Shown piece after piece: positions 19,361-44,944 of a stretch of 64,000 bases of DNA. The notes under the pieces were generated by a model. The model was not told where the DNA came from. It saw nothing but the letters and a program-made list of their open reading frames with translations, and made no database searches. Position numbers and translations under genes: made by a program. The DNA is from Eledone cirrhosa (Eukaryota): positions 68,014,001 through 68,078,000 of the forward strand of contig OZ024744.1 in the NCBI GenBank assembly GCA_964016885.1. Reading direction: 5' to 3'. How positions within the stretch are numbered: the first letter of the stretch is position 1; each line of letters starts with the position of its first letter.

Positions 19361-19696
19361 AGAGAAAATTGAGGTTGGTAATGGCACATGGAATATATAA
19401 GAGACAGAATACTTTTTTGTGAAAAAACATAATTTTATAAGGTAAGGAAATAATAAAGGGTATAAAAAATGACCGGTTTCGATGGGTCTGCAAAAGCCAT
19501 CTTTTCAAATGTTGATTAATATTAATTTTTCTTAATATTAATCAACATTTGAAAAGATGGCTTTTGCAGACCCATCGAAACCGGTCATTTTTTATACCCT
19601 TTATTATTTCCTTACCTTATAAAATTATGTTTTTTCACAAAAAAGTATTCTGTCTCTTATATATTCCATGTGCCATTACCAACCTCAATTTTCTCT
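19361..19696. repeat. Palindrome with 165-bp arms and 6-nt loop, between (TA)n tracts
   Basis: 19361-19525 is the reverse complement of 19532-19696; no mismatch seen. Confidence 0.95.
19544..19591 (+). ncRNA. Candidate hammerhead ribozyme with U3-A8 core variant (mirror copy at 19466-19513, minus strand)
   Basis: TTGAAAA-gatgg..ccatc-GAAA-ccgg-TC; stem II and palindromic stem III good, stem I weak. Confidence 0.45.
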
Positions 19697-19727
19697 CTAT
19701 ATATATATATATATATATATATATATA

Positions 19728-20970
19728 TCATCATCACCATCATCCTCACTTTGACATCCGTTTTTCCTTGCTTGCATGGGTTGGACAAATCCTTTTCAGC
19801 ACACCCTACTCATCGCGTTACTTCGTCATCACCTCTGTGAGTCTCAGTGACTTGAGATCAGTTCTCACCACCTTCACCCTGGCCTTCCTTGGTCTACCTC
19901 TAGCTGCTGCTTCCCTCCACTGGGATTTCCTGGCACTTCTTCACCCAGAGATCATCATTCATGTGCATCATGTCTTTACCAATGCAGTCTTGTCTCTTGT
20001 GCCCCACTTTGGATTCCTCTTAGCCCCAGTTTCTCCCTCAGTTCTTCTAGGCTCTACCTTTCTCTCACATTTACATTGCATATCAGATGAAGCATGGCTG
20101 CTTTATTTCTCTCCAGCCCACACATGTCTTCTGCATAAGTTTCACCACTATGCAACATCGCATTTCGTACACAGGTGTTATACAGTCATCTTTTTGTATG
20201 TAGGTAGAAACCTTTGTTATCAAGTGGGAGTGGCTCTCTAAACATCTTCCATTCTATCATTATTCTAGTTACTAGCAGAAAAACCACCATTCGGGTGGTT
20301 TTCTGCTAGCATGTATAGTGTGTATATTGATATTATACGCAAGTATATATACATGTAGATATGATACATCAAATAAAATCGTAATTGAAATATACACGGA
20401 AATTGAACGAAGACTGTGTTCCACTGTCTTATGTAATCAGTAACGTAATCCATGATACATTAAAAAAAGATGATATTATATATAAACTGCATTAGGAGAA
20501 AATTAGTGACAGAAATATATGAATGTTTATTTAAGCGATCGCTAACTGGAAGTGTTGACATTGGAAAATTTTAAAGAAGTGAATCTTTAAATAAACAATA
20601 AAATATATTTAAACAACAGCTACGAAATTGAGTAGATAAATTATGTAATATTCATTCATTATTTATTCAAAGTAATCCAACTTATTTTACTAAGGGGATA
20701 AATTATAAACCGTACGCAGTCCCACACTTCTTACTTTTAGATTGTGCTCTCAGAACATCCTCCTCTATTACTAATTAAGTTACCCAGATAGCAGAAGCTA
20801 TCAGCCACTTCTATGAATCCTTCATGTGGTTGGAAAAGGTCTATATTCCTGACACTCTTCCCCTCAATTACTCCTGTGCCTCTTTTACATACAAGGTTAT
20901 CCTTTTCTCTTAGTCTACTTGTTATCACACTACATCTCTTGTGTACCTAAGATTTATATTGTGTACATTG
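19728..20970 (-). mobile_element. Degenerate RTE LINE 3' part, split by a mini-Helitron
   Basis: (CAT)n tail at 19728; IEVADSFCYLG...GGCSESTI|TRI..WKMFRE rejoins across 20272-20741. Confidence 0.8.
20272..20741 (-). mobile_element. Non-autonomous Helitron (470 bp)
   Basis: Minus strand A|TCtaaaag...hairpin aaaccacccgaatggtggttt...tgCTAG|T; inserted at an AT dinucleotide without TSD; removal restores RTE codons ESTITRI. Confidence 0.85.
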
Positions 20971-20979
20971 CATAGAGAT

Positions 20980-21410
20980 ACCAACACTACCATTTCACAG
21001 AGTGAACTGGGTGCTTCTAGCATTACCATTTTACAGAGTGGGCATTTTATCATGGAACCTGCACTACCATTTTACAGACTGGACTGGGTGCTTTTTACCA
21101 TGGCACCAGTACTACCACTATACAGTGGGGACTGGGTGCTTTTTTACCATGGCACCAGTACTACCACTATACAGTGGGGACTGGGTGCTTTTTTACCATG
21201 GCATTAGCACTACCATTTTACTGCATGGACTGGGTGCTTTTTATCATAGCACAGCACTAACATTTTACAGAGAGAACTGGGTGCATTTTATCATATGGCA
21301 CCTGTTCTATAATTTTATAGAAAGCTGGGTGGTTTTTATTGTGGCACCAGCAATACCATTTTGTAGAGTGGACTGGGTGTATTTTATCATGGCGCTATCA
21401 CTACAAGTAC
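20980..21410. repeat. ~41-bp minisatellite (~10 units)
   Basis: cactaccattttacagagtggactgggtgctttttaccatggcaccag units, head to tail; related to the 4960-5340 array. Confidence 0.9.
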
Positions 21411-41930: not shown

Positions 41931-43073
41931 TTAGTTCGCAGGTGCTTCTGAAATCGTTTTCCAAGATATTGAATAGTCTATATTCTTGCTTTTTAAGTTC
42001 CATATAAGATGTGAAAGAGAAGTGGAAGATTTTTTATCAGATCTTCTGAAAGAGTGATTATGGTTATTCCAGCGATCTTTAAATTTTGTAGAAGTGGCAC
42101 CGACATAGTTAAATATATTATCACTAGTTTTTACTGTGCATTTATCTAAACATTTATTTTTATCTAAACATTTATTTTGTAAAGGGCAGTTTGATTTGAT
42201 TCTACAGTTACATTTTACGGAGTTGTTGTTGCTCGGAACGGTACTATTATGTTGGAAATTGCTAGAAATAAAATTATTGCTATTATGGTTATTTTGGTTA
42301 GGGTTTAAATTTAAGTTTCTATTATTAATTCTATTTATATTTTGTGCTATGTTCATAGTAGTAGAGTAGGATAGTTTTATAGTATGTCTGTTAAAGATTG
42401 AGTGGTATCTGTGGGCTTTAGGAAAACATTTGTCTAGTGCTTTAAAGAATAGTTTTGCTAAAGGTGTTTTAACACTTAATGAGAATGAGGGTGAGTACCA
42501 CATACTATTTCTAGTTCTAGTTCTTTTGTTTGGTTTAGAGTTTAAGTTAAATAGTTTATTATAATTAATACTAGGGTGATTTGCCATGTTATTGTTGTCA
42601 ATGTATTTAATTTTATTCGAATACCTTGCTCTATTTAAAGCTTCATTATAATATTCAGCCTTATCATCAAAAATATTTTTATTAGCAGAGATGCGTGAAA
42701 TTCGTTGTTGGACGCTATTGACAATAGTGTTCTTAATAGATCTAGGATGATTAGAGTTAAAACTTACGTAATTTAGATTCTCATTAATTTTATGGAAAGG
42801 ATAGTAAAGCCCTGTGCTAAGGTTTAATGTTACGTCTAAGAAGTTAACGATTTTATAGTTATTCTCTATTTTTAACTTAAGGTTATAATTATTGAAAAAT
42901 TGTATTATGGATTTTCTTTTCCTATTAATTTCACAATTACTATGATTTTCAATTAAAAGTAGCATATCATCACGATATAAACCACCGGTCATTTCTGGCA
43001 TTTTCCTATGCAGTGTATTATTAATAAATAAGCCCACAAGATCCGTTATTTGCGCCGAGTCAGATGACCCCAT
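41931..43073 (-). CDS. PLE RT C-terminal half and GIY-YIG (disrupted upstream and downstream)
   Basis: MGSSDSAQ, GGLYRDD, VNFLDVTL, CNCRIKSNCPLQNKC, YVGATSTKFKDRWNNH; clear paralogue of 35345-37208. Confidence 0.88.
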   Translation of the reverse strand: MGSSDSAQITDLVGLFINNTLHRKMPEMTGGLYRDDMLLLIENHSNCEINRKRKSIIQFFNNYNLKLKIENNYKIVNFLDVTLNLSTGLYYPFHKINENLNYVSFNSNHPRSIKNTIVNSVQQRISRISANKNIFDDKAEYYNEALNRARYSNKIKYIDNNNMANHPSINYNKLFNLNSKPNKRTRTRNSMWYSPSFSLSVKTPLAKLFFKALDKCFPKAHRYHSIFNRHTIKLSYSTTMNIAQNINRINNRNLNLNPNQNNHNSNNFISSNFQHNSTVPSNNNSVKCNCRIKSNCPLQNKCLDKNKCLDKCTVKTSDNIFNYVGATSTKFKDRWNNHNHSFRRSDKKSSTSLSHLIWNLKSKNIDYSISWKTISEAPAN

Positions 43074-43584
43074 AGTGATATCAAAATTATTTTTTCTATC
43101 GGCTCTTATCCATTAAAGTTTTCCGTGCTGTTAGAATGATATTCATTTCATCACTAGATAAATCTGCATGTTTAGATGCGCAGATAAGAGCCCTATTAAG
43201 TAAACTAGGAGTAATAGAGGAGTAGTAATTTGCAATATCCATTTGAATGAATTTTTTGTTGTTTAAATTTTATGTTATTGAACCAATCTATAACTTCATA
43301 AGTACCGTTCCATAGTTTCAGGTGTGATAGTTTAAGTTGCGGTATGATTCTATCTAATTTCCTTTTTTTTTTTCATTTTTCTTTCTTTTTCTCTTATATC
43401 TAAACTTTCCATAGCGTTTAAAATAACGGTTTTTCAATCATATAACTCAACGTTATTTACATATTCATTTGCATACTCATACATAAGTTTGAAAAATCCG
43501 TTCTTTAATCTCACTACCCAAAGAAAATTCAACTGATAAGGTATGTTTTCCTTGGCTATGTCAACATTTATAAAACACTCTTTG

Positions 43585-43646
43585 TATTTTATCTGATGAA
43601 AGCGTACCAAAGTTTTTGGTACCCTTGAAATATATATAATAGAATA
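43585..43646 (+). ncRNA. Minimal type I hammerhead ribozyme
   Basis: tattttat-CTGATGA-aag c gtaccaaa..tttggtac c ctt-GAAA-tatata-TA-atagaata. Confidence 0.85.
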
Positions 43647-44944
43647 AATATGGTTTTATAAATATAGTTTTCATTTATTTAATATCATTGAATATTTACT
43701 CCAGAAAGCTGACGAGTGCTCTGAATCAGTTATAAACGTTTATATTTGTTGAATTTCCAACAAATTAAATATCCCTTCTACTTATATATATATATATATA
43801 TATATATATATATATATATATATATATATATATATACATGTGTGTGTGTGTGTGTGTGTGTGTGTGTGTGTGTGTGTGTGTGTGTGTGTGTGTGTGTGTG
43901 TGTGTGTGTGTGTGTGTGTGTGTGTGTGTGTGTGTGTGCACCACAAAATAAGAGGGAAAAAATGACCCATTGCAGGAGCTACTGCTACAGATACTCTGGC
44001 CTTCTTTAAAGAATTCTTTTGAAAATTATTTTTGTAATGTTTAAATTTTGAGATTCTGAGAATCCTTCGGAATTTAGTCTTTAACTTTTGACAATTTTCT
44101 GAATTGTGTTGAAAAAATGTTACTTAATTCCCGGTGTGTGTATGTATTTATTTATATATATATATTCACACACTATGTCTCATTTCAAAATAAGAGGAAA
44201 AATTTACTCATTGCAGAAGTTACTGCTACTGATACTCAGGCTTTTGTTAAGGTAGTCCTTTTGAGAGAGTAAAGATTTTTTTGATTTTTTTGGGGAAAAT
44301 TTTTTTTTGTTAATTCCCTTCCACAAAAGTTTCTGTGACAGACAGGCTGAAAAGAACACACACAACTCCCCCCCCCCACACACACATGTGTTTATTGCTA
44401 AAGGGACTATGACAAACAAACTGAAAAAAAAAAACACATACATATACACACACACTCACACTCTCTCTATATATATGTGTGTGTGTGTATATATATGTAC
44501 ACATACAATCCTACTACTACTCCTACAGAATTCAGCTCTCACTTACAATCCCCTATCCCCTTTGAAATTGTGACCCCTCAAAACAGGATATTTTTCAAAA
44601 CAACTTCGTCCCTTGCAGAAAAACAAGTAAAATTCTCATTCCACCCAACCTTTCAGCAGGATGGAAGAAAATTTACTCAAACATTTGATTTTGATTTTAA
44701 TTTTAAACCTTTCGTTTTTAGCTCCTATCAACTCTTTTTAATTTTTAATTTTTTACACTCAACATTTGACAAGATGGATTTTAATAACACATCGAAACCG
44801 ATAATTTCTTCATATACTTTAAAAGTATCATCATAAACATTTTTTAAAAAGAATTGTCCCTCTCATTTTTTAATAACATTATCTTTTTAATAACATTATC
44901 TTTTCAATAATGTCACTTTGACGAATCAAAAAAGAAAAACAAAC

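Follow-up and report, generated by a model that had tools for sequence, protein, structure and literature searches.

U3-A8 hammerhead motifs in the terminal repeats of Neptune-like Penelope-like elements of Eledone cirrhosa

A stretch of 64,000 nucleotides of the Eledone cirrhosa genome (assembly GCA_964016885.1, contig OZ024744.1, positions 68,014,001 to 68,078,000), here called the window, holds four hammerhead motifs that carry U3-A8 in place of the C3-G8 pair. They are probably type I hammerheads of the pseudo-long terminal repeats (pLTRs) of Neptune-like Penelope-like elements (PLEs), in an ancestor of which C3-G8 gave way to U3-A8, and which would retain a weak self-cleavage, likely as dimers joined through the palindrome ACCGGU and probably with the help of a protein. 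The motif lies within the pLTR, its U3-A8 state is family-wide, and positions 3 and 8 covary among related elements. PLE-type ribozymes with a joint change of C3 and G8 had been proposed in an original prediction made from the letters of the window alone, and both the pLTR position and the family-wide state agree with it. In the active hammerhead core, C3 and G8 form a Watson-Crick pair (PMC3884650). Natural covariation to U3-A8 has been described, and Perreault et al. (2011, PMC3088659) state that such ribozymes show activity in vitro, in line with the earlier view of the swap as a known tolerated variant.

All four motifs share the core U3 U4 G5 A6 N7 A8 A9, a stem II of 4-5 bp closed by G10.1-C11.1, as a hammerhead requires, the GAAA, a 6-nt ACCGGU or ACCGAU and a final UC or UA. 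The hammerhead core set of U4, G5, A6, N7, A9, G12, A13, A14, the A15.1-U16.1 pair and H17 is present. The four UUGANAA-stem II-GAAA-palindrome-UH motifs first listed are all in the sequence: 19549-19586 and its mirror 19471-19508 were placed exactly, while of the minus-strand stretch given as 39691-39736 the core itself is 39695-39732 and the rest is flank. The palindrome is intact in three copies, where the intermolecular ACCGGU stem III is predicted at -8.3 kcal/mol, and broken to CCGA in the copy at 44766-44803, whose duplex reaches only -1.3 kcal/mol in the same model, so that this copy is likely dead; CCGA replaces CCGG in 3 of 30 family-2 rows. In an Rfam search with an E-value limit of 5, the 150 matches listed, out of 157, included no hammerhead.

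The host of the family-1 motif was found by extending six loci. This full-length tandem element (L066) has a unit of 4,861 nt and runs in the order hammerhead, ORF1, reverse transcriptase (RT), C-x4-C-x2-C linker, GIY-YIG endonuclease and hammerhead; about 1.1 kb of 3' region lies between the RT-GIY-YIG open reading frame (ORF) and the hammerhead, which in tandem copies is 174 nt upstream of ORF1. A search with its protein gave 1,215 relatives, with identity of 59% for the best one. With an RT followed by a C-terminal GIY-YIG in the same ORF, and homologs carrying PF00078 and PF01541, it is an endonuclease-bearing PLE, and the hammerhead lies inside a pLTR with the tandem or inverted structure and one-ended tail typical of such repeats. 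The linker reads CGRTNCGTC and is thus of the CX2-5CxxC type; on this basis we take the element to be Neptune-like, the protein tree having contained no named reference elements. Craig et al. (2021, PMC8557442) give a CX2-5CxxC linker upstream of GIY-YIG for both Neptune and Nematis, and describe PLE copies that are truncated and inverted, one-ended tails of 30-40 nt and (TA)n as target. The family-1 stub at 19319-19696 fits this description, as its left arm carries the tail and its right arm does not. Over its 207 nt the left arm matches the pLTR of L066 with 100% identity, and the inverted arms pair between 19358-19525 and 19532-19699. Among 100 family-1 terminal arms, the 3' end lies at +110/113 from the predicted cut in 44 and at +152 in 54. 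Family-1 copies are young, with full identity over 171 nt in 29 of the 40 matches scored (the window's own included). U3-A8 is carried by a young family, in which 150 of 150 scored endonuclease matches are 99-100% identical.

The original prediction spoke of two different repeat families, only one of them beside a GIY-YIG. Both are in fact linked to a GIY-YIG, and with about 83% amino acid and about 82% nucleotide identity in this domain they are related subfamilies of one Neptune-like lineage. They share one ancestor and therefore do not count as independent evidence, the double change from C3-G8 to U3-A8 having been inherited once; an independent origin of U3-A8 in the two is ruled out. The family-2 element of the window is interrupted by a nested insertion, as shown by another genomic copy (L034) in which the matches to 40613-40935 and 43933-44261 lie about 460 nt apart. 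A non-LTR retrozyme, made of non-coding tandem units of a few hundred nucleotides that each bear a hammerhead, was considered as the source of the window copies and rejected, since these are truncated ends of the coding 4.86-kb element. Elsewhere in the genome, one locus (L427, G000:C22:17113300-17115600) consists of four 184-nt tandem units in which the family-1 hammerhead is intact, and so resembles a retrozyme that has just arisen.

Ten full-length family-1 copies (L307-L316) have two overlapping ORFs, a frame of 427 amino acids and an RT-endonuclease frame of 777 amino acids in -1. The slippery heptamer U UUU UUA, in register and followed by GGG, lies inside the overlap at 9 of the 10 loci (2538-2544 in L308), a sequence arrangement that suggests a programmed -1 frameshift; ORF2 also has its own ATG. 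Some PLEs have a frameshifted ORF1 (Craig et al. 2021, legend of Fig. 1, PMC8557442).

Searches of the 3.0-Gb genome, in which exact pattern counts were set against reversed-pattern controls, show that U3-A8 is the family state of these PLE-type hammerheads. The family-1 pattern TTGANAAG-N12-28-CGAAACCGGTH occurs 3,073 times as an exact match and its reversal once, and hence is not due to chance. In the context of this pattern the genome holds 3,073 U3-A8, 58 U3-G8, 13 C3-A8 and 2 C3-G8 copies; the control of the C3-G8 pattern gave 140, controls thus not always being near zero, and the counts are no census of canonical hammerheads. The family-2 consensus, which might have turned out canonical, has C3 or G8 in 0 of 30 rows, with U3 in 30 and A8 in 29 and a variable position 7. 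Family 3 (stem II GCAG/CUGC), whose RT and GIY-YIG are about 50% identical to those of family 1, has 14,390 exact matches (control 1), which overlap slightly with the 3,073, and family 4 (GAUUG/CAAUC) has 37. Across the four families stem II changes with pairing kept (GAUGG/CCAUC, GAUG/CAUC, GCAG/CUGC, GAUUG/CAAUC), and the core is constant while position 7 (A/C/U) and position 17 (A/C/U) vary. That single copies of a canonical C3-G8 hammerhead decayed one by one under AT bias would agree with both changes being transitions towards A/T and with the 37% G+C of the window; this origin has a negligible probability and is refuted by the family counts, 2 C3-G8 against 3,073 U3-A8 in the same context, with all young near-identical copies being U3-A8. 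The U3-G8 variants outnumber the C3-A8 ones genome-wide and 55 of the 58 have U7; there may be a small older U3-G8 subfamily.

Related PLEs from other organisms carry either pair. Beside 118 loci encoding related proteins, taken from metagenome and genome contigs and scanned with a descriptor that allowed all four 3-8 states, the element strand gave 24 C3-G8, 17 U3-A8, 1 C3-A8 and 0 U3-G8 hits, with 1 hit on the other strand; most of the loci are without a hit. These hits comprise 31 distinct motifs, 17 C3-G8, 13 U3-A8, 1 C3-A8 and 0 U3-G8, a distribution that supports real covariation of positions 3 and 8. Ten dinucleotide shuffles of the 558,639 bases gave 0 descriptor hits, and a relaxed scan of the related loci added one U3-G8-like candidate. 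On a tree of 37 proteins, 26 of them labelled, the 3-8 state changed at least 6 times, a number that is approximate given the handling of labels (one hand-set, one duplicate and most unlabelled rows excluded), the distant motifs behind two labels (848 and 1,656 nt downstream) and the open forks. PLE RT-GIY-YIG genes with hammerheads also occur in contigs filed under bacterial genomes (L129-L246), which likely represent contamination by animal hosts.

Stem I pairs over only 2 contiguous bp in families 1 and 2, as compared with 4-6 bp in families 3 and 4. In particular, it reads CAACAU/AUUUUU in 50 of 50 family-1 rows and CACCUU/AAGGAA, with CCUU/AAGG pairing, in 31 of 45 family-3 rows, and 11 of 20 family-4 rows pair over 4-6 bp (rows include overlapping loci). 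The second pair is swapped between A-U and U-A among families. By comparison of these sequences, stem I appears to be conserved, one of its pairs having undergone a compensatory swap, and to have eroded in the two families of the window; the caveat of poor pairing raised at the outset stands, as every copy folded has 2 contiguous pairs.

Occasional copying of cut RNA should leave inserts that begin at the predicted cut, here position 0. The 100 terminal family-1 arms give no clear pile-up there (two at 0, from one insertion, and three at +5, +6 and +13). Among 100 copies with the pLTR-ORF1 junction, 37 extend past -270 and the other 63 rows reduce to 49 events after merging tandem arrays; 7 of the 49 fall in -1..+7 (1.05 expected) and none in -23..-2; P is about 1e-4 for this interval, the width of which was set with the data in view, and 0.014 for any interval. 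For family 1, genome-wide patterns that required non-matching upstream bases gave 73 raw hits at the cut, where 2,013 were at risk; the counts were 13 for the upstream pattern and 11, with 1,274 at risk, for the downstream one. Upon checking, 23 of 30, 7 of 13 and 9 of 11, respectively, were true ends. Once one array is removed and pass rates are applied, the estimates are about 3.5-4% at the cut, 1% upstream (with an assumed, uncounted number at risk) and 1.5-2% downstream. In family 3, with 15,625 at risk, 246 hits lie at the cut and 109 and 98 in two intervals upstream of it, an excess of about 1.4-2.5-fold after correction; its ends spread over -2 to +2 without a sharp peak (hand count, 100 matches listed), and 9 of 23 mapped ends are exactly at 0. 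Of 30 unselected family-3 copies (L505-L534), 17 begin at -73..-62, about 35-45 nt before U3, likely a transcription start or a strong stop. The 2-4-fold excess of 5' ends at the cut is a possible footprint of occasional cleavage. A separate locus (L426, G000:C4:321065300-321072300) is an inverted tandem array; its 455-nt units extend into ORF1 from starts only a few bases away from the predicted cut, and could derive from circular or repeatedly copied cut RNA.

It is tentatively proposed, with the balance somewhat against it, that this pile-up is a genomic record of a U3-A8 hammerhead with a 2-bp stem I cutting PLE RNA in the germline, the cut RNA templating a few percent of insertions. There is an even chance that the excess has another cause, either microhomology of the A/T-rich bases after the cut to fold-back partners or to (TA)n targets, or a family-1 transcription start at TCATTT, which resembles the initiator consensus. 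Indeed, many junctions are AAAAAT/ATTTTT fold-backs or (TA)n joins, the excess over the AT-rich downstream control is only about 2-fold, and the small, blunt enrichment in family 3 is what such a cause would give. It accounts less well for the cluster of 7 among the 49 junction events beside an empty stretch just upstream, and for family 3, which lacks TCATTT yet shows some excess and ends exactly at 0.

With regard to self-cleavage itself, the palindromes of two RNAs would pair into an intermolecular stem III, cleavage would follow H17, and a minority of tandem or read-through transcripts would be trimmed in this way, probably with assistance from the element's protein. Such weak, assisted cleavage would take place in active master copies, with little or none expected from the four window copies, which are truncated leftovers; the pair at 19.5 kb, if read through, would be buried in a 168-bp hairpin, and the window's 342-nt stub is predicted to fold into one hairpin of -272.7 kcal/mol. 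Most inserts are copied from uncut RNA. Several observations weigh against this reading. The 5' end lies upstream of the cut in 95 of the 100 terminal family-1 arms; there is no stable stem I flank duplex in families 1 and 2 (+1.1 and +2.4 kcal/mol); none of the three window monomers folds as a hammerhead or beats its shuffles (z -1.08, 0.25 and -0.63); and the predicted family-1 dimer is not of hammerhead form, that of family 3 being hammerhead-like. In families 2 and 3, U3 together with A17 could form a pair that traps the cleavage site, by analogy with a proposed C3-G17 pair, and A17 is found in 0 of 13 outside U3-A8 motifs. In addition, a single assembly supplies the contigs of 13 of the 16 outside U3-A8 hits that were listed, and the protein tree leaves 12 of 34 forks unresolved.

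The 2-bp stem I, the unfavourable folds and the majority of copies made from uncut RNA would also agree with a motif of hammerhead descent that has lost cleavage in families 1 and 2 and persists for a role in the pLTR promoter or in protein binding; in a Poseidon element, moreover, insertion in vitro did not need cleavage, and none of the reads had its end at the cut (PMC11167929). Such a loss of cleavage is nevertheless unlikely in view of the 3-8 covariation with hardly any mixed states among relatives, the compensatory changes in stems I and II across families, the excess of 5' ends at the cut, and the Penelope element of D. virilis, whose helix I also has 2 bp and which retains some activity with an extended helix III (PMC4209133).

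Weak self-cleavage as dimers would place these motifs close to known PLE hammerheads, which need dimers and cleave poorly (PMC4209133). The U3-A8 variant itself is already published. Perreault et al. (2011, PMC3088659) describe the same 3-8 covariation, in passages without a tie to PLEs, and U3-A8 occurs in the hammerheads of Cercyon PLEs of S. mansoni, with about 1,300 hits (Cervera and De la Pena 2014, PMC4209133), including the rows UUGAUAAA and UUGAAAAA of their Fig. S3 and a UUGAAGAA example. Its earlier description as rare is therefore not supported for PLEs, given Schistosoma Cercyon and the 13 of 31 distinct motifs found here. Like those of E. cirrhosa, Cercyon hammerheads are type I, lie in PLE terminal repeats, combine U3-A8 with G10.1-C11.1 and a palindromic helix III region, and are mostly single motifs in truncated copies or opposite-strand pairs (PMC4209133). 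Unlike Cercyon as presented there, the E. cirrhosa host is Neptune-like, helix III is a 6-nt palindrome, no extra base stands between A9 and stem II, families 1 and 2 have a shorter stem I, and the copy number is about 17,000. The hammerheads of D. virilis Penelope and of mosquito, shrimp and rotifer PLEs also have a small palindromic helix III that needs a dimer, but carry C3-G8; the Penelope one shares the 2-bp helix I and the little variation among copies (PMC4209133). The Anolis Poseidon hammerhead PAc, likewise in a pLTR upstream of an internal start of reverse transcription that makes the tail, cleaves only with protein and depends on its 3-8 pair for it (PMC11167929). It differs in a C3-G8 core that overlaps the start codon and in that no reads were found at its cut, as opposed to the modest enrichment of genomic 5' ends in E. 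cirrhosa. A literature search, largely without subscription journals, found no report of U3-A8 hammerheads in Neptune-like elements or of genomic 5' ends at PLE hammerhead cut sites; the 5'-end excess is one addition of the present analysis. Searches restricted to CUGANGA miss these motifs, as originally anticipated, U3-A8 being the family state; the hammerheads overlooked number about 17,000 in this genome, and beside related PLEs they make up roughly four in ten motifs, and ribozyme counts in animal genomes are thus too low. Should the excess reflect real cleavage, it would bear on whether PLE hammerheads act in vivo, and cutting in the germline would provide in vivo evidence of their activity that is readable from assemblies alone. 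Repeated switching between C-G and U-A among related elements would then be a natural test of tuned, weak cleavage.

Table 1. Neptune-like elements and their hammerhead motifs in the window.
Feature	Position	Strand	Remarks
Family-1 stub, left arm (head-to-head)	19319..19525	-	Lies in (TA)n; includes tail of about 40 nt; ends at +152 relative to the predicted cut
Family-1 stub, right arm	19517..19696	+	Without tail; ends +110; 99.4% identical over 180 nt to the L066 pLTR
Family-1 hammerhead motif, mirror copy	19471..19508	-	U3-A8, C17
Family-1 hammerhead motif	19549..19586	+	U3 U4 G5 A6 A7 A8 A9, 5-bp stem II, GAAA, ACCGGU palindrome, C17; predicted cut after 19586
Older family-2 element, inverted left arm (3' end)	39587..40335	-	88-89% identical to 44277-44910
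Family-2 hammerhead motif	39695..39732	-	U3-A8, C7, A17; palindrome intact
Family-2 C-x4-C-x2-C linker and GIY-YIG endonuclease, 5'-truncated	40291..40765	+	One in-frame stop; from translation
Remaining family-2 3' region	43930..44910	+	Split from the GIY-YIG by a nested insertion of another PLE, about 3 kb
Family-2 hammerhead motif	44766..44803	+	ACCGAU; palindrome broken

The window also contains another PLE lineage, presumably Nematis-like, with canonical CUGAUGA hammerhead-like motifs at 14721-14767 (-), 30626 (+), 32696-32750 (+), 33091 (-), 38834 (+) and 43593-43638 (+). RT-GIY-YIG frames of this lineage lie at 35339-37208 (+) and 41931-43112 (-), the latter nested in the family-2 element; a Pfam search of the window did not recognise the PLE frames at 34.7-37.2 kb and 41.9-43.1 kb. 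Further downstream, 49579-57919 and 59974-61355 hold pieces of non-LTR retrotransposons (AP endonuclease, RT, zf-RVT and PHD) together with a Pif1 helicase, a piece that we assume to be Helitron-like.

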